This document shows positions 1 to 52,300 of a stretch of DNA of 64,000 nucleotides, piece after piece (position 1 is the stretch's first letter; every line of letters starts with the position of its first letter). Below the pieces are notes generated by a model. It ran no database searches and was not told the origin of the DNA. It saw only the letters and a list, made by a program, of their open reading frames with translations. The DNA is from Eledone cirrhosa (Eukaryota). Location: assembly GCA_964016885.1 (NCBI GenBank), contig OZ024743.1, positions 178,746,001-178,810,000 on the forward strand. Reading direction: 5' to 3'. The position numbers and the translations under genes were made by a program.

Positions 1-469
1 GTTTAAGATGTGGTCTGTGGCGTAGAGTATTTCCAGGGCCTCAGCGGCGCAGAGGTCACATGGTCTTTTATTTCCGTTATACGATCTAGCCCTAGCTAGG
101 ATCTCCCAGTGTAACTTATATTGGGTGTGGTTGTCTTTTAGACTCTAGATATAAGCTGAAAGTGACGTCATATTCCTTCTTAGAGGGTATCGAAAAGAAT
201 GGGTATGCATGTAAAGACGCTGCTTGAAACTATTGGCGGTTAACCCTATGTAGGCCCTACGGGACGTGGGTGTTACAACCTTACATTTGTAGACAATGTT
301 ACTAGAGAGGCATTTCCCGGATAGGGGGCAATCAGCCCGATTCCTACAATTACAGTTAGTACTAACTACAGGGTTGCACGTGTTCCTACGGCTAGGTAGT
401 TTAGCTAAATTTGAAGCTGTGATGTTATTTGCAAGGTTAGGAGTCGTAGAGTAAGAAATTTTAATAGTA
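1..469 (-). mobile_element. Inverted 5'-truncated copy of the Penelope-like element (linker + GIY-YIG region), running off the window edge
   Basis: Reverse complement of 1-469 aligns without gaps to 1759-2227. I saw two substitutions: 387 (AGG/R vs TGG/W at 1841) and 146 (TAG stop vs TGG/W at 2082). Confidence 0.95.
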
Positions 470-2314
470 AACCTGAAGAATAGAATTCGTTCTATTAAGG
501 ATTCTAACGCAGTGCACGTCCATTCCGACAAAACTGGCAACCTATATCAAGTGGAGCGCAGTACTTACCATCAACTACTACATAATGCTGTAACTAAGGA
601 TTACCGTAAAACTAATCGGTGCGTCATCAATGAAATCAACGATGCTGGGTTTAAAATCACATCTGATCTCAACATTCTGGACCGGACCGAACCTCTGGAC
701 ACTATCTCTCCCCACTTTACCCTGAAGGATCACAAATCCAATTTTCCGAACAACCCCTCTATTCCGCTTATTAACCCTACGAAGACCGATTTAGGTAGAC
801 TTAGTAAAACGATTCTTGATAGAATTATACCTGAAATTAGAAGTTTGGCCCCTCTCGCACTGTGGAACAATTCTTTCGCGGTGATTGATTGGTTCAACGG
901 CATATGTAACAAGGAACATTGCCGTTTTATCTAATTCGACATCAACAATTACTACTCCTCCATCACTTTACCACTTCTCCTTAGAGCTATCAATTTCGCT
1001 AAAACACTCACAGTGGTTAAGGATTTCGAAGTTGATGTCATCCTTAATGCCCGAAAGTCGGTGATTAATTTCGACGACTCTATTTGGATTAAAAAATCCA
1101 ATAGTACCCCATTCGACGTGAGTATGGGCGCCAGTGACTCTGCGGAGGTTACTGATCTTATTGGCCTTTTCCTTCTTTTCTCTATCAAGGACGAATTCCC
1201 CAACGCGGGCGGTGGTTTGTACCGAGACGATGGTCTTTTGACCATGACTAAGTGCGGACCTCGTGCTTGCGACAGGTTCAGAAAAGAACTCACAGCCTTC
1301 TTTAAAGGCTTCAACCTCTCTATACAGGTTGAGGCCAATCTCTCGGTCGTTAATTACCTCGACGTTACCCTCGATTTATTGAATGGGTTGTATTACCCGT
1401 ATAGAAAGCCGAATGATACGCTTAATTACATAAGTAAGCATTCCAACCATCCTGCCAGCATAACCAAGAACCTGGTAAGAAACGTTTCGTTGAGGCTTTC
1501 CCGTCTTTCCACCAACGAGCGCATTTTCAACGACCATTCCACTTATTACAATGAAGCTCTTGCTCGAAGTGGATTTGTCGATAAGGTAGCATATACAGAG
1601 TATGAAAATAGACCTAGAAGAAATATATCCCGTCGCATTTGTTGGTTTAACCCACCATATAATATGGAGGTGGCCACACCATTAGCTAAGATTTTTCTTT
1701 CCCTTATTACGAAGCATTTTCCCCCTACACATAAATATAGTAAAATTTTTAATAGAAATACTATTAAAATTTCTTACTCTACGACTCCTAACCTTGCAAA
1801 TAACATCACAGCTTCAAATTTAGCTAAACTACCTAGCCGTTGGAACACGTGCAACCCTGTAGTTAGTACTAACTGTAATTGTAGGAATCGGGCTGATTGC
1901 CCCCTATCCGGGAAATGCCTCTCTAGTAACATTGTCTACAAATGTAAGGTTGTAACACCCACGTCCCGTAGGGCCTACATAGGGTTAACCGCCAATAGTT
2001 TCAAGCAGCGTCTTTACATGCATACCCATTCTTTTCGATACCCTCTAAGAAGGAATATGACGTCACTTTCAGCTTATATCTGGAGTCTAAAAGACAACCA
2101 CACCCAATATAAGTTACACTGGGAGATCCTAGCTAGGGCTAGATCGTATAACGGAAATAAAAGACCATGTGACCTCTGCGCCGCTGAGGCCCTGGAAATA
2201 CTCTACGCCACAGACCACATCTTAAACAAAAAATCTGAGGCAATTTCGGCTTGTAAACATAAATTGCACAAAACTTTCCTGTATTACAGCCCCACGTTAC
2301 ACCCTAATGGATAG
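470..2314 (+). pseudogene. PLE reverse transcriptase / GIY-YIG endonuclease polyprotein, N-terminally truncated, one in-frame stop (TAA 932-934)
   Basis: ORFs 512-934 and 1013-2314 share a frame. Motifs: SDKTGNLY (DKG-like), LINP, FI*FDINNYYSSI (RT motif A), MGASDSAEVTDL (motif B), LYRDDGL (motif C), VNYLDVTL, YRKP..YISKHSNHP (thumb), CNCRNRADCPLSGKC linker, NIVY..AYIGLT..FKQR..E..LN (GIY-YIG). Confidence 0.93.
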
Positions 2315-2395
2315 CACGATCTATACGCAGATATTTTACGTCTTGATGTGGGAGCTAAGTATATGTTTTGTTTATTCCTTTACTTATTTGCATAG

Positions 2396-3145
2396 GTAAG
2401 TATATATTACCCATATGTTTTGTGAAGGTATGTATACCTTCTCGTACGTATATTTGACTGTTATGGCGTATCATTTTTACATATTCTGGTATTTAGGGTT
2501 TGGCTATGTGTATACGGGAGTTTTGCGTCCGAGTGAGTATGCAGGTTCGTACGTATGGTGGGTGTGTGTATATGTGTACTTCTTGTTTTAGTTGACTTAC
2601 GTCTCCGAACATTCGTGTATTTATATGTAGGTGTGTGTCTGCGCTTGTTATATACGTATTTATTTACTTATATACGTTTATATAATTATTTATTTATTTG
2701 TACACAAGCATACACACACACACATATTTATATGTGCGTGGTTTTGTATACCTATGGTAAGGTTTTGCGTATGCTTGTGTATGTACGTATCTGTTTGCGT
2801 GTATGTATTTATTTGTTTCTATTACTTCTGTATTGTATTTATTTACTTTGTTCTTAACTCTGTAGCGGAGATTCATTTGGTCTCCTAGTTAGAATTTCAG
2901 TCTACGACTTCTGCTATACCATTTACGTGGTTTTGTCTTTGCGTGCTTTTGTTCTCCACGCTCCACATATGACTTATTATCTTCGTTTTTTCGTTCATTG
3001 CCTGAGAACGTCTCTATGCACCACCTAAGAGAACATTAGTCTACGACCTCTTTTATACCATAAACGTGGTTTTGTCTTTGCGCGTAATTGTTTTTCACCG
3101 CTCCTATTAATGACGTATTATTCGTTTTTTCCCGTTCTTTGCCAG
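2396..3145 (+). other. Spliceosomal (GT-AG) intron, 750 bp, in the PLE terminal region
   Basis: Donor CATAG|GTAAGT at 2396. Polypyrimidine tract TTCGTTTTTTCCCGTTCTTTGCCAG| ends at 3145, with a candidate branch site TGAC at 3111-3114. The antisense copy joins ...TTGCATAG|CGAACGTT... at 4609/4608, i.e. lacks precisely this segment. Confidence 0.88.
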
Positions 3146-3165
3146 CGAACGTTACCACGAACCAA
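2889..3165 (+). repeat. Diverged 2-copy tandem duplication (~139-bp period) covering the intron acceptor region
   Basis: AGTCTACGAC at 2899 and 3038; both copies share ACGTGGTTTTGTCTTTGCG, ATGAC, TTCGTTTTTT and GAACGT. Confidence 0.85.
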
Positions 3166-3226
3166 AGTATCGTCTTCCTGTCTTCCTCCGATTGCAACGT
3201 TTTTTGAAATATCCGGTTCTGCGTTT

Positions 3227-3302
3227 ACAGATTGACTTTGTTAGTTTCAGAAGATCCCGTTAAGGGTGAAAGCAGCGATTCTTTGCTTAAACTTTAATCT
3301 GT
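3227..3302 (+). ncRNA. Type I hammerhead ribozyme-like fold with variant core
   Basis: Stem I: ACAGATTGA 3227-35 / TTAATCTGT 3294-3302, 7-nt bulge, AGTTT 3243-47 / AAACT 3289-93. Core CAGAAGA 3248-54. Stem II: T-CCC-GTTAA-GGG-T 3255-67. GAAA 3268-71. Stem III: AGCAG 3271-75 / TTGCT 3283-87. Predicted cleavage after CUU (3288). Folded by eye. Confidence 0.8.
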
Positions 3303-3398
3303 TATTTTAATAAATATTTGCTCTACGGTTCTTATATATTTGATATATATTTTCCTTATCGAGCCCTCTTTGGATTTAGTCTTCAATTTTATTATTAT

Positions 3399-3401
<3 letters not shown>

Positions 3402-3451
<50 letters not shown>

Positions 3452-3457
3452 TATATA
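3402..3457. repeat. (TA)n microsatellite at PLE 3' end
   Basis: Near-perfect TA run directly after 3401. Confidence 0.97.
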
Positions 3458-3646
3458 GATGAGATTCTACAGGACTAGAACTGTTTCATTCTTTAGAAAT
3501 CATCAGGAATCTGGCTTTCCAAAAATAAATGTAGTGGTATTTATATCTTTTATACTCTGCCATGTATTGAGTACCTTACTTACTGTGGTTACCTCCGATT
3601 CAACCCGGAATAACTTACATATATATATATGGATACATATATATAT

Positions 3647-3800
3647 ACATGTCCAGCCAACCTCAGTCTCCTCTGTGTCACTTTTGAGCTGACTTTTGGG
3701 ATGCTCCCATACAGCTCTGAGTTTTTCATCCTCAGTGTATACTGATTAATGTTCAGAGCCATCCTCAGCATTCTCGTGTAGCACCCATCCACCATCTGAG
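3647..3800 (-). mobile_element. RTE-clade LINE fragment, inverted 5' segment
   Basis: Translates DGCYTRMLRMALNI..NSELYGSIPKVSSKVTQRRLRLAGHV, typical of the post-RT C-terminal region of RTE-clade ORFs. Confidence 0.85.
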
Positions 3801-4003
3801 TTGACATTGCACTCAGTGCTCCTTTGGGAGCCCCTACATGGACACACTAGAAGAGGAAGACCAAGGTTAACATATGTTGATGCCCTAAGGACAGATACTG
3901 GTCTGTTGGAGATGCAGGATATGGCAGCGATAATGAGGGACAGAGACCGCTGGAGAGAACTCGTCCATGGATCTCGGGAATTTTACCCGCCTTAGATAGA
4001 TAG
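3801..4003 (+). mobile_element. RTE-clade LINE 3' end with short (AGAT)n tail
   Basis: Translates [40 protein letters not shown]..stop (3995), the usual RTE C-terminus, followed by TAGATAGATAGAT. Confidence 0.85.
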
Positions 4004-4350
4004 ATATATATACATACATATATACATATATACATATACATATATACACATATATATACACATATATATATACACACATATATATATATATACACATATA
4101 TACACATATATATACACATATATATATACACATATTTATATATATATACACATATATTATTATACATATATATACACACACATATATATATACATATACA
4201 TATATATATATACATATACACACACATATATATGTACATATATATATATATACATATACACATATACATATATATACATATACATATATACATATATATA
4301 TATATACATATATATATGCATATACATATATATACATATACATATATATA
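4004..4350. repeat. Compound (TA)n/(TACA) microsatellite
   Basis: Alternating TA with interspersed CA. Confidence 0.97.
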
Positions 4351-4686
4351 GTAATAATAATAAATTTGAAGACTAAAATCCAAAGAGGGCTCGAGAAGGA
4401 TAAATATATATCAAATATATATGAACCGTAGAGCAAATATTTATTAAAATAACAGATTAAAGTTTAAGCAAAGAATCGCTGCTTTCACCCTTAACGGGAT
4501 CTTCTGAAACTAACAAAGTCAATCTGTAAACGCAGTAGTGGATATTTCAAAAAACGTTGCAACTGGAGGAAGACAGGAAGACGATACTTTGGTTCATGGA
4601 AACGTTCGCTATGCAAATAAGTAATGGTATAAACAAAACATACTTAGCTCCCACATCAAGACGTAAAATATCCACGTATATATCGT
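4351..4686 (-). mobile_element. 336-bp intron-less (spliced) copy of the PLE terminal region; non-autonomous, hammerhead-bearing
   Basis: Reverse complement aligns to 2316-2395 joined to 3146-3401 with scattered substitutions. It has the same 3' end nucleotide and is flanked by TA-type microsatellite on both sides. Confidence 0.9.
4452..4527 (-). ncRNA. Second copy of the variant hammerhead fold
   Basis: Reverse complement is identical to 3227-3302 over 76 nt; predicted cleavage after 4466 on the minus strand. Confidence 0.8.
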
Positions 4687-4744
4687 ACATATACATATAC
4701 ATATATACATATACATATATATATATGCACACACACACACACAC
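4687..4744. repeat. (TACATA)/(TA)/(CA) microsatellite
   Basis: Direct inspection. Confidence 0.9.
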
Positions 4745-4798
4745 TACTCATATCTCTACCTGTTTTCTCCTTATCCGAACTTTCCTGATTACATTTAC

Positions 4799-5359
4799 AA
4801 CTCAGATTACATTTATTGTATTCAGCCATGTAGAGTGAAAAAAATTTTTTTTTCAATGTGGCAAAGCCGGCCATTTATCGCTCGTATACAGGAAACTGAC
4901 TGGCCAGTCTGCTGATATGTAAATCTGGCTGATCAGCCGCTCTGCTAATATGTAAATCAGGCCGATCAGTCACTGTATATTTTAGAAAATAGCATATATT
5001 TGGCAGCTGTATTGATGAAGGGTGATACCCAGAAACATTCGTGACTGCAGTTCTGTTTACATGCCAACACAAGAGCAAGAATGAAGGGTTCATTTTAGTG
5101 ATATGGCTTTAAAAATGAAGTTTGTTTGCATAATTGCAAACGAGGGCGGTGGATTGGCAGTATAGGTAGAGAGTCGGATGCCATGCTTTCCAGCATAGTT
5201 ACGTCCCTTTACGATCTGAGTTCAAATCCCGTCGAGGTTAACTTTGCCTTTCATCCTTACGGGGTCGATACAATAAAGTACTAGAAATGTGCCAAAAGTA
5301 GAAACAATTATTAATATTCGAAAAACTCAGATTACATTTATTGTATTCAGCCATGTAGA
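4799..5359 (+). repeat. 36-bp exact direct repeat pair (4799-4834 and 5324-5359)
   Basis: AACTCAGATTACATTTATTGTATTCAGCCATGTAGA occurs twice, 525 bp apart, each followed by an A/T run. Confidence 0.9.
5143..5285 (+). mobile_element. Degenerate tRNA-derived SINE (octopus-type), 3'-truncated
   Basis: Pol III A box TGGCAGTATAGG 5155-5166 and B box GAGTTCAAATCC 5218-5229, then ACTTTGCCTTTCATCCTT..GGGGTCGATA..ATAAAGTAC, a core I recognise from octopus SINEs (from memory, not searched). Confidence 0.8.
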
Positions 5360-5373
5360 CCGAATTTTTTTTT

Positions 5374-5374
<1 letters not shown>

Positions 5375-5433
<59 letters not shown>
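5375..5433. repeat. (TA)n microsatellite
   Basis: Direct inspection. Confidence 0.95.
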
Positions 5434-5434
<1 letters not shown>

Positions 5435-6453
5435 TAGCAACAGTACCCAGCATTGCCTGGGTAGGTAAAATAATATCTGTTTTGATGAAAAGGTGTTGAT
5501 CTTAGCGACTGCTTCTCGGTGACTCATCTATGGCCACACACAGGCCACGCGGGGGAGGGTGGTGATGACCTCTATCACTGAGAAACGCGGGTGACTGACG
5601 AAGGGGCATGCTGTGGGAGGGGGGTAATGACCTCTAACACTAAGCCAAATTTCCTCACGCTAGTTGATTGGAAACCGATGAATTATCAAATACACAACTA
5701 AAAGCTCAGACGACGTCAGTGGCCATCGTTTTGCCTTTGACCATCTATAAGATGTGCAATGATAGGTTCTATCGTAATATAAAAGTTGAACCAAATAAAT
5801 TTATTTATGTCTGAGGTGGAGCCGAAGTTTCGAATTTGAAAGAAGTCGATTGAAAAATGTGGGAGCTAGAGCCGAAAAGGCGGAAATTTGAGCGAAAAGG
5901 TGGTATTTTCGAATATTTAAGCGGCTGCCATGCCGTTCCTGAACAAAAACTCCAAAATGTAAAGCCCCTTTAAGACGTGAAATAATCAGATCGAGCGTAG
6001 TGTAAATTTTGAACAAAGTAGGTGATTAATGTGGGAGCTAGAGCCGAAAAAGTGGAAATTTGAGTTTAAAAGTGGTATTTTTGAATATTTAAGCGGCTGC
6101 CACGCCATCTCTGAACAACAAATGCAAAATATAAAGCCATTACAGGATGTGCAATGATAAATTCTATTTTGCTTTAAAATTGGAACGAAATCGGTGGCAA
6201 AATGTGGGAGCTAGAGCCAAAAATCTTATTTTTCGATACCTAAATAAAGGTGACCCCCCCCCCCCCCCCCCCTATCGATTTTTATCTGCAGAATGACCCC
6301 GGAATAAAAAAAAAACGATACGCTGATATGTAGAAAACACTCCCCGATGATTAATCTATGAGCCTGTAAAGTTTCATGAAAATCGGTCGTAAGATGTAGG
6401 CCCCTATAGGTAATACACACACACACACACACACATAATTTTTTATATACAGA
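5434..6453 (-). mobile_element. Non-autonomous Helitron-like element (~1020 bp)
   Basis: On the minus strand it starts A|TCTGTATATAAAAAATTA(TG)n at 6453. It ends with hairpin TACCCAG-GCAATG-CTGGGTA (5463-5444), 6 nt, then CTAG|T (5437-5434). This gives canonical 5'-TC, 3'-hairpin-CTRR, A|T insertion and no TSD. Confidence 0.75.
5750..6225. repeat. ~172-bp diverged tandem repeats inside the Helitron-like element
   Basis: AATGTGGGAGCTAGAGCC at 5856, 6028 and 6201; GAATATTTAAGCGGCTGCCA twice; ATGTGCAATGATA at ~5752 and ~6147. Confidence 0.85.
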
Positions 6454-6774
6454 TATACAGAGAGAGAGAGAGTGATTATATATATACACGCATACAGAGA
6501 CATATACATGTGTTTTCACAGTTCTGTTCACTTGAATATACACTCTCGAGGATATTTATATTTTATACACACACATTTCAATAGTCATACAACACGTTCT
6601 TTCCCACACAGCTTCTTCTGTATGTGAAAACAAACGCGGTGAGGTATGTGTGTGTGTCTGTCTCTCTGTGTATATGTGTGAGTGTGAGCGTGAATTTTAT
6701 TTGATGTATGTATGTACGTATGTATGTACGTGTGTGTGTACGTGTGTGTGTATGTAAGTATGTATCTATGTAAT

Positions 6775-7056
6775 GCCAGGCTGCTCATCAGTGCTACTGG
6801 TAACATGTAACCCAGTACAACCTGTGCATGGTCGGGTGGTCGGTAACTAAACTGGCAACCTCCACAAAACTTGGTTGGTGAGGAGGGTGATTTTAGACAC
6901 CATACGGGATGAGAAACAAAACCCGTAATGGGAGGATGGACTCAGGAGAGCCAACGGCCATACAACACATTTTTTTTTTGTTATGTGGAACGAGAGACGC
7001 CTAGTCTTCATTAAGACATCTCTCTAGGAGAAGGTCACTCTGACATAAAGCCTGCG
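6775..7056 (+). mobile_element. Probable RTE-LINE 5'UTR fragment
   Basis: CTAGGAGAAGGTCACTCTGA (7024-7043) resembles the conserved RTE 5' domain (CTAGGAGAAGGAAAACTCTGA, from memory). It starts right after a TG/TATG microsatellite and has several hairpins. Confidence 0.5.
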
Positions 7057-7187: not shown

Positions 7188-7387
7188 NNNNNNNNNNNNN
7201 NNNNNNNNNNNNNNNNNNNNNNNNNNNNNNNNNNNNNNNNNNNNNNNNNNNNNNNNNNNNNNNNNNNNNNNNNNNNNNNNNNNNNNNNNNNNNNNNNNNN
7301 NNNNNNNNNNNNNNNNNNNNNNNNNNNNNNNNNNNNNNNNNNNNNNNNNNNNNNNNNNNNNNNNNNNNNNNNNNNNNNNNNNNNNNN
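7188..7387. other. Assembly gap (200 N)
   Basis: Run of exactly 200 N, a placeholder-sized scaffolding gap. Confidence 0.99.
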
Positions 7388-49300: not shown

Positions 49301-52300
49301 CAACCACTACCCCCAACATCATCATCATCAACGATAACACCACCACCACAACCACTACCTCAACATCATCATCATCAACGACAACACCACCACCACAACC
49401 ACTACCCCAACATCATCATCATCAACGACAACACCACCACCACAACCACTACCCCCAACATCATCATCATCAACGACAACACCACCACCACAACCACTAC
49501 CCCCAACATCATCATCATCAACGACACCACCACCACCACAACCACTACCCCCAACATCATCATCATCAACGACACCACCACCACCACAACCACTACCCCA
49601 ACATAATCATCATCAACGACACCACCACCACCACAACCACTATCCCCAACATCATCATCATCAACGACAACACCACCACCACAACCACTAACCCCAACAT
49701 CATCATCATCAACGACAACACCACCACCACAACCGCTAACCCCAACATCATCATCATCAACGACAACACCACCACCACAACCACTACCCCCAACATCATC
49801 ATCATCAACGACACCACCACCACCACAACCACTACCCCCAACATCATCATCATCAACGACAACACCACCACCACAACCACTAACCCCAACATCATCATCA
49901 TCAACGACAACACCACCACCACAACCACTACCCCCAACATCATCATCATCAACGACACCACCACCACCACAACCACTACCCCCAACATCATCATCATCAA
50001 CGACAACACCACCACCACAACCACTAACCCCAACATCATCATCATCAACGACAACACCACCACCACAACCACTAACCCCAACATCATCATCATCAACGAC
50101 AACACCACCACCAAAACCACTAACCCCAACATCATCATCATCAACGACAACACCACCACCACAACTACTACCCCAACATCATCATCATCAACGACAATAC
50201 CACCGCCACAACCACTACCCCCAACATCATCATCATCAACGACAACACCACCACCACAACCACTACCCCAACATCATCATCATCAACGACAACACCACCA
50301 CCACATCCTCTACCCCCAACATCATCATCATCAACGACAACACCACCACCACAACTACTACCCCAACATCATCATCATCAACGACAACACCACCACCACA
50401 ACCACTACCCCAAAATCATCATCATCAACGACAACACCACCACCACAACCACTACCCCCAACATCATCATCATCAACGAGAACACCACCACCACAACCAC
50501 TACCCCAACATCATCATCATCAACGACAACACCACCACCACAACCTCTACCCCCAACATCATCATCATCAACGACAACACCACCACCACAACTACTACCC
50601 CAACATCATCATCATCAACGACAACACCACCGCCACAACCACTACCCCCAACATCATCATCATCAACGACAACACCACCACCACAACCACTACCCCAACA
50701 TCATCATCATCAACGACAACACCACCACCACAACCACTACTCCCAACATCATCATCATCAACGACACCACCACAAAAACTACCCCATCATCATCATCATC
50801 AACGACACCACCACCACCACAACCGCTAACCCCAACATCATCATCATCAACGACAACACCACCACCACAACCGCTAACCCCAACATCATCATCAACGACA
50901 ACACCACCACCACAACCACTACCCCCAACATCATCATCATCAACGATAACACCACCACCACAACCGCTACCCCCAACATCATCATCATCAACGATAACAC
51001 CACCACCACAACCGCTACCCCCAACATCATCATCAACGACAACACCACCACCACAAACACTACCCCCAACATCATCATCATCAACGATAACACCACCACC
51101 ACAACCGCTACCCCCAACATCATCATCAACGACAACACCACCACCACAACCACTACCCTCAACATCATCATCATCAACGACAACACCACCACCACAACCA
51201 CTACCCCCAACATCATCATCATCAACGATAACACCACCACCACAACCGCTACCCCCAACATCATCATCAACGACAACACCACCACCACAACCACTACCCC
51301 CAACATCATCATCATCAACGATAACACCACCACCACAACCGCTACCCCCAACATCATCATCAACGACAACACCACCACCACAACCACTACCCCCAACATC
51401 ATCATCATCAACGACAACACCACCACCACAACCACTACCCCCAACATCATCATCATCAACGATAACACCACTACCACAACCGCTACCCCAACATCATCAT
51501 CAGCGACAACACCACCACCACAACCACTACCCCCAACATCATCATCATCAACGACAACACCACCACCACAACCACTACCCCCAACATCATCATCATCAAC
51601 GATAACACCACCACCACAACCGCTACCCCCAACATCATCATCATCAACGATAACACCACCACCACAACCACTACCCCCAACATCATCATCATCAACGACA
51701 ACACCACCACCACAACCACTACCCCAACATCATCATCAACGACAACACCACCGTCACAACCACTACCCCAACTTCATCATCAACGACAACACCACCGCCA
51801 CAACCACTACCCCCAACATCATCATCATCAACGACAACACCACCACCACAACCACTACCCCAACATCATCATCAACGACAACACCACCGTCCCTACCACT
51901 ACCCGAACATCATCATCAACGACAACACCACCGCCACAACCACTACCCCCAACATCATCATCATCAACGACAACACCACCACCACAACCACTACCCCAAC
52001 ATCATCATCAACGACAACACCACCGCCACAACCACTACCCCAACATCATCATCAACGACAACACCACCACCACAACCACAACCCCAACATCTTCATCATC
52101 AACGACAACACCACCACCACAACCACTACCCCAACATCATCATCATCAACGACACCACCACCACCACAACCACTACCCCAACATCATCAACATCAACGAC
52201 AACACCACCACCACAATCACTAACCCCAACATCATCATCATCAACGACAACACCACCACCACAACCACTACCCCCAACATCATCATCATCAACGATAACA

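Follow-up and report, generated by a model that had tools for sequence, protein, structure and literature searches.

Two pLTR copies at a TA-rich locus

The window analysed here, a stretch of 64,000 nt from Eledone cirrhosa (contig OZ024743.1 of assembly GCA_964016885.1), holds at its left end a Penelope-like element (PLE) and, beside it, a short, intron-less copy of the pseudo-long terminal repeat (pLTR) of the same family (Table 1). The long copy covers 1-3401, is truncated at its 5' end and has an inverted head, in which 1-469 is the reverse complement of 1759-2227 at 99.6% identity. Its open reading frame (ORF) contains a single in-frame TAA at 932-934 and closes with the stop codon TAG at 2312-2314. 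The first-pass annotation had described this copy as a full element, a description at odds with the truncation, the inverted head and the in-frame TAA. The short copy, on the minus strand at 4351-4686, is devoid of ORF sequence and starts at the stop codon, 80 nt upstream of the donor. Over its full length, its reverse complement matches 2316-2395 joined to 3146-3401 (336 nt each; 19 differing columns in 18 events; 94.3% identity), which confirms the exact intron-less copy noticed at first pass. The segment absent from it, 2396-3145 (750 nt), begins with GTAAGT and ends with TTCTTTGCCAG, a pyrimidine tract followed by CAG, and the short copy reads across the gap at a splice-like junction (4609/4608). 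The 2-nt AG microhomology reported for this junction is found in the sequence, as is the common 3' end of the two copies, which stop at the identical terminal base (3401 and 4351) and continue into (TA)n.

The short copy is flanked on both sides by TA-rich repeats, with no resolvable target-site duplication. Its 5' boundary is ambiguous within 2314-2316, because the common family allele 2315T prolongs the match into the TA-rich flank. The start claimed at first pass, 2 nt past the stop codon, is thus uncertain by a few bases.

On the motif definition of Craig et al. (PMC8557442), we assign the long element to the Hydra clade of PLEs. A single ORF encodes reverse transcriptase (RT) followed by a C-terminal GIY-YIG endonuclease (YRDD, then VY..YIG). 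DKG is modified to DKT in the frame 455-931; the CxCX5C linker reads CNCRNRADC; CxxC..E reads CDLCAAE; CxH reads CKH; and CCHH is absent, with one Cys between VY and YIG. Insertion into (TA)n is seen at 3402-3457, 4004-4350 and 4686-4726, and in (AT)n loose ends in the sequencing runs. Hydra-clade PLEs share the C-terminal endonuclease, DKT, CxCX5C, the lack of CCHH, the CxxC and CxH that flank the catalytic E and N, the (TA)n target, the inverted 5'-truncated head and a hammerhead-like motif past the stop codon; the 750-nt pLTR intron with two donors, the long stop-to-hammerhead distance, the CAGA core (see below) and the intron-less solo copies set the present family apart, and the available portions of PMC8557442 mention none of them. 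Of 120 homologues, a large share of which are partial, 59 have the N-terminal RW[KR]; the window copy is truncated at this end. The PLE protein has 1053 homologues, and look-alikes carry RVT_1, GIY-YIG and HTH_animal (at 0.95-0.98). A Pfam scan of the ORF pieces returned no family, and one of 36 aligned proteins gave weak, unrelated matches alone; a PDB sequence search with the PLE protein gave five weak prion-protein matches, none relevant, and a single-protein search of prokaryote genomes gave no relatives. Identity as a Naiad was considered and rejected, since Naiads carry an N-terminal endonuclease. The intron itself contains a duplication (2891-3011 and 3030-3152; 139-bp spacing; 78% identity). 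The acceptor region falls within it, and the YAG is missing from the upstream copy.

Table 1. Features of the PLE copies and their flanks (positions in the window)
Feature	Position	Strand	Basis and remarks
Inverted, 5'-truncated head of long PLE insertion	1..469	-	reverse complement of 1759-2227; runs off the window edge
RT + C-terminal GIY-YIG-type ORF, Hydra-clade PLE, 5'-truncated	455..2314	+	ORFs, motifs, homologues
Exon 1 of pLTR (3' untranslated region / leader)	2316..2395	+	kept in short copy
Intron, 750 nt	2396..3145	+	donor AG/GTAAGT, acceptor polypyrimidine-CAG; exactly missing from 4351-4686; joints in run X1; top-ranked donor and acceptor
Alternative donor AAG/GTATGT	2428..2433	+	718-nt intron, same acceptor; joint 2428>3147 in X1 and X21
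Exon 2 of pLTR, to 3' terminus	3146..3401	+	kept in short copy
Degenerate type I hammerhead-like motif	3238..3298	+	core CAGAAGA (U4 -> A), predicted cut after 3288; pattern scans
Segment behaving as optional tail, 84 nt, with Hydra-type GCTC..GAGC hairpin 3320-3367	3318..3401	+	family ends at 3317; relatives' hairpins
(TA)n target of long copy	3402..3457		tandem repeat scan
TA-rich microsatellite, 3' end of short copy	4004..4350		tandem repeat scan
Intron-less solo pLTR, 336 bp	4351..4686	-	exon 1 = 4686-4609, exon 2 = 4608-4351; hammerhead-like motif 4516-4456
TA/CATA-rich microsatellite, 5' end of short copy	4686..4726		tandem repeat scan

Splice-like junctions in other copies of the family

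Positions 1916-3415 were compared at 80% likeness with four of 23 sequencing runs (X1, X4, X5 and X21), a set that excludes six RNA or probable-RNA runs whose shares were 0.10 or less. X1 consists of contigs from the same species and is probably DNA, judging by how large it is (1,428 million letters) and by complete coverage of the intron; X21 is a genomic restriction-site-associated DNA (RAD) run; X4 is of unrecorded kind, possibly RNA; X5 stems from another organism. Three splice-like joints occur among the 15 of 94 joints listed. Joint 2393>3144 is the junction of the window (GT..AG; X1 depth 142.7), 2396>3147 is the same splice in another subfamily (X1 depth 432.1), and 2428>3147 uses the second donor (X1 depth 497.8, plus one genomic read in X21). 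The latter two seem one base off and are exact given the common allele 3146G, which accounts for 49% of X1 depth and 1058 of 1425 X21 reads. Within each junction class the 31-mers are identical. With single-locus depth taken from the eight longest X1 contigs listed (5.7-22.2), we estimate some 6-25, 19-75 and 22-87 loci for the three classes, respectively. The window junction is accordingly not confined to this locus, at about 6-25 times the single-locus level in X1, and is accompanied by two more multi-copy classes; its 21-mer had no match in metagenome contigs. For the first-donor junction the window is itself evidence in DNA; the second-donor junction occurs in a run recorded as genomic.

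A simple rule of consensus matching, fixed once the sites had been seen, places donor 2396 at the top of 98 GT sites, with 2428 in shared second place, and acceptor 3145 at the top of 15 YAG sites. Among the 21,880 deletion classes that have 2 nt or more of microhomology, 8 join a strong donor to a strong acceptor. Given that two donors share one acceptor, we favour RNA splicing over deletion at the DNA level, and an origin of the intron-less copies from spliced RNA is very probable. This proposal of the first-pass annotation is now backed by three multi-copy junction classes that involve two donors, one acceptor and two subfamilies; its companion claim, that spliced and unspliced forms are both mobilised, is likewise supported.

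The short copy had also been called a copy of its neighbour, and here the variant data point elsewhere. Among the variant rows listed (40 of 316), 11 lie in exons. At seven of these the short copy carries the allele with 76-100% of X1 depth and the neighbour differs; at the remaining four, the two copies share one letter. The short copy thus has the letters common in the family at all 11 listed polymorphic exon sites. The neighbour is also young, with two differences between its inverted arms, and for both reasons it cannot have been the template: judged by these letters, it is a relative of the short copy. Their position side by side is consistent with shared targeting, because another Hydra-type fragment abuts the same TA run. 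This fragment (3458-3615, minus strand) belongs to a different Hydra-type PLE. Its hammerhead is canonical (CTGATGA core; 3516-3458; 23.6 bits; E 5.7e-5), and the fragment, which is short and bounded by TA runs, ends about 5 nt past the ribozyme stem. Three PLE pieces share one TA-rich spot.

Hammerhead-like motif, tail and 3' ends

Exon 2 contains a degenerate hammerhead-like motif, which we compared with those in 79 related loci. Besides its altered core, the motif departs in stem III, where the second pair is G-C and not C-G. The core is CTGA in 58 of 59 motifs of relatives and CAGA in none. A model built from 42 relatives scores the window motif at 10.8 bits (E 0.26), the motif is not the minimum-energy fold, and Rfam gave 43 matches on 1-7000, all below the gathering score and none to a hammerhead family. 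Its place is nevertheless homologous to that of the relatives' hammerhead, because a GCTC..GAGC hairpin (3320-3367) follows at 72 nt; 29 of 41 relatives have such a hairpin, at 60-94 nt. The distance from stop codon to hammerhead is 933 nt here, in contrast to 57-515 nt (median 130) in 35 distinct segments of relatives, and removal of the intron shortens it to 183 nt, within their range. The variant rows listed (40 of 316) do not include position 3249, an indication, short of proof, that the U4A change is family-wide. Changes in the hammerhead core mostly lower activity, with some natural exceptions (PMC3088659). None of the 18 differences between the two copies falls in the hammerhead-like region, which makes up 74 of the 336 nt (Fisher p = 0.017, with boundaries chosen after the data were seen), a result in favour of some constraint.

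The family has two 3' ends. Copies that end at 3317 and continue into (AT)n were found in 147 X1 contigs, 2393 X21 reads and once in X5, whereas both window copies terminate at 3401. Because of these two ends, 3318-3401 behaves as an optional tail. Poseidon of Anolis carolinensis (PAc) resembles the family in having two 3' ends that bound an optional tail and an AT-rich target; it differs in clade and in tail length (30-40 bp versus 84 nt here), and RT initiation was measured there and is deduced here (PMC11167929). Depth in X4 peaks at 51,220 in 3266-3315, about 340 times the ORF level, versus about ninefold in X1; if X4 is RNA, the peak could reflect either an abundant RNA of small size or numerous 3' fragments.

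Further observations concern the same region. Opposite-strand joints between the stem I arms (3248-3289) occur in X1, X4 and X21, 3289 being the first base past the predicted cut, and further inversion joints cluster in 3243-3332; these joints possibly arose by fold-back or template switching. Eight Hydra-clade relatives (L001, L004, L031, L038, L042, L054, L069 and L079) have two GCTC..GAGC hairpins between an upstream hammerhead and the start codon, and one copy of this hairpin likewise marks the 3' tail. The hairpin is a candidate signal for RT binding or initiation, a role of which the available portion of PMC8557442 makes no mention. In L002, L054, L072 and L077, a pyrimidine tract with YAG stops 4 nt short of the hammerhead core, much as the end of the Penelope intron abuts helix I; pattern search gave no matching donor in these four.

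The remainder of the window contains other repeats. At 3656-3995 lies the 3' end of a LINE-like, possibly RTE-like element, ending in (TAGA)n. A 172-bp tandem unit occupies 5835-6223 (about 2.3 copies; 77% identity), an N gap spans 7188-7387, and 7388-64000 is filled by a satellite with a 48-bp unit (about 1,194 units; 92% match), in which long frames run without stops and higher-order repeats are apparent.

Proposed copying of a spliced leader and its implications

How could a spliced, ORF-less pLTR reach a new site? In a tandem element, the pLTR would double as the 5' leader. Transcription would begin near 2314-2316, and the intron would then be spliced. The anole PLE protein nicks AT-rich DNA in vitro and initiates reverse transcription within sense RNA, at two positions that flank the tail (PMC11167929); by analogy, RT would begin internally at the tail, close to the point where pLTR and ORF meet. 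Synthesis from this upstream tail site to the 5' end of the messenger RNA would yield exon 1, exon 2 and the tail without the ORF, which is what 4351-4686 contains. Short spliced copies would recur with either donor and in each active subfamily, and no separate non-autonomous family would be needed to produce them. ORF-bearing copies would derive from read-through RNA, with the intron of the downstream pLTR retained. Splicing downstream of a stop codon can trigger nonsense-mediated decay; speculatively, this pathway may remove RNAs spliced 81 nt past the stop codon and account for the retention. We lean towards the route as a whole, in which the RT of the element copied the spliced leader of a normal messenger RNA into a (TA)n site. 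More tentatively, and short of what we would call probable, PLE RT may routinely copy its own spliced leader from an internal tail site, with intron retention following from the pLTR copy used as template and not from an antisense template.

The architecture has counterparts in other PLEs. In Drosophila virilis Penelope, the pLTR likewise serves as 3' untranslated region and 5' leader, with a short exon 1, a spliceosomal intron and then a hammerhead; transcription starts in the pLTR, 46 bp before the intron (PMC2377424), and the hammerhead comes right after the intron (PMC4209133). Chlamys-3_cRei also has a pLTR with a short first exon and a spliceosomal intron, in two intron isoforms (PMC8557442). 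For both elements, splicing was shown in RNA and genomic copies reportedly keep the intron for the most part, whereas the spliced form described here is known from DNA.

Several points weigh against the spliced-leader route. The spliced state is documented in DNA, no split RNA reads were obtained, and the recorded-RNA runs lie outside the set compared; none of the three joints occurs in X4 or X5 among the 15 of 94 joints listed. A single contig, whose short side has 25-27 letters, underlies each joint, and the short, ORF-less form is visible in the window copy and not in the joint contigs. The first-donor junction was found in none of the X21 reads despite about 840 reads covering 2379, RAD sampling being tied to cut sites. 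Microhomology is present at all three junctions (2 nt in the window, 3 nt in the 3146G subfamily). No cluster of 5' ends near 2316 is among the 24 of 1237 loose-end rows or the 10 of 15 begin/end rows listed. The step of RT initiation is modelled on a PLE of another clade. Finally, a donor and acceptor between stop codon and hammerhead were found by pattern in 1 of 35 relatives, and a clean gap of at least 40 nt in none of 262 similar pairs from 58 segments of relatives; the long intron may be a peculiarity of this lineage.

The 5' end of the short copy could have another origin. The copy might be a 5'-truncated complementary DNA of a long, ORF-bearing RNA with a spliced 3' pLTR, its 5' end being set by chance or by microhomology with the target. 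The family is indeed strongly 5'-truncated, with X1 depth of about 0.2-0.5 million across the ORF climbing to 1.2-3.2 million in exon 2, the boundary letters are GTACGAT-like, TA-rich and matched by the flank, and the rows listed hold no 5'-end cluster. However, at most 3 nt separate this end from the stop codon, and its distance from the donor resembles that in Penelope. A single copy cannot decide the matter, and we regard truncation as unlikely.

Could the spliced solo pLTR instead be a self-propagating, non-autonomous family with its own promoter, mobilised in trans? Every junction class is multi-copy with identical 31-mers, the hammerhead-like region is free of differences (with the post hoc boundaries given above), and non-autonomous PLEs such as MRC1 are known (PMC8557442). 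Set against this, X1 depth has no exon-1 excess over the ORF end or the intron start (361k, 301k, 264k and 220k in successive bins) and passes the acceptor without a sharp step (909k to 1,186k); X1 sums are inflated by overlapping contigs and X21 is biased by RAD sampling, so these depth ratios do not equal copy numbers or a spliced fraction. Intron-bearing copies appear dominant in the family, and the abundant SINE-like (short interspersed element-like) partner proposed at first pass finds no counterpart in these profiles. Three junction classes spanning two donors and two subfamilies fit repeated production from masters, and the short copy has only family-common letters at the 11 listed exon sites. 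The retrozyme-like partner that had been envisaged fares no better: retrozymes are tandem repeats with a hammerhead in each unit, whereas the short copy is a monomer between microsatellites whose ends lie off the predicted hammerhead cleavage site. Metazoan non-LTR (long terminal repeat) retrozymes (PMC7229834; bioRxiv 10.64898/2026.07.22.740005) and the non-autonomous Chlamys element MRC1 resemble it in being about 340 nt long, ORF-less and PLE-pLTR-related, with a hammerhead-like motif; they differ from this monomer, which has a deviant core, is defined by a splice junction and bears no sign of large independent amplification. Altogether, we consider a self-propagating family decidedly improbable. 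Deletion of DNA between the AG/AGG microhomologies, followed by multiplication through retrotransposition or segmental duplication, is very improbable: the microhomologies, the existence of other family deletions (e.g. 2460>3015 and 3181>3224) and the lack of RNA splice reads speak for it, but it would need three deletions that hit the top acceptor and two of the three top donors, and the other deletions listed are weak (X1 depth 0-33 or one read start).

In the literature searched we found no report of spliced genomic PLE copies, and earlier PLE papers outside that search may mention intron-less ones; the available portions of PMC11722881, PMC13159263, PMC5718144 and PMC6431247 hold nothing further on the subject. 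The majority of PLEs contain introns (PMC2377424), and the significance of their retention has been called unknown (Craig et al., 2021, PMC8557442). Previous work left undecided whether the template is antisense or unspliced sense RNA, and ascribed solo pLTRs to recombination or deletion (PMC3846280). Exact splice junctions in genomic copies imply that spliced sense RNA can serve as template in vivo, and because of these junctions an antisense-only model fails for this PLE family. The family also seems to spread while its hammerhead core departs from the consensus, which agrees with the dispensability of cleavage in vitro, where RT initiation by the anole PLE was independent of hammerhead cleavage (PMC11167929). 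If spliced copies prove to be short in every case, with one common 5' end, promoter and RT start could be mapped from DNA alone, and intron retention would be explained by the geometry of the template. Should routine copying of the spliced leader hold true, the 5' ends of short copies would record the start of transcription and their junctions alternative splicing, and spliced copies would always be ORF-less, in any PLE-rich genome.

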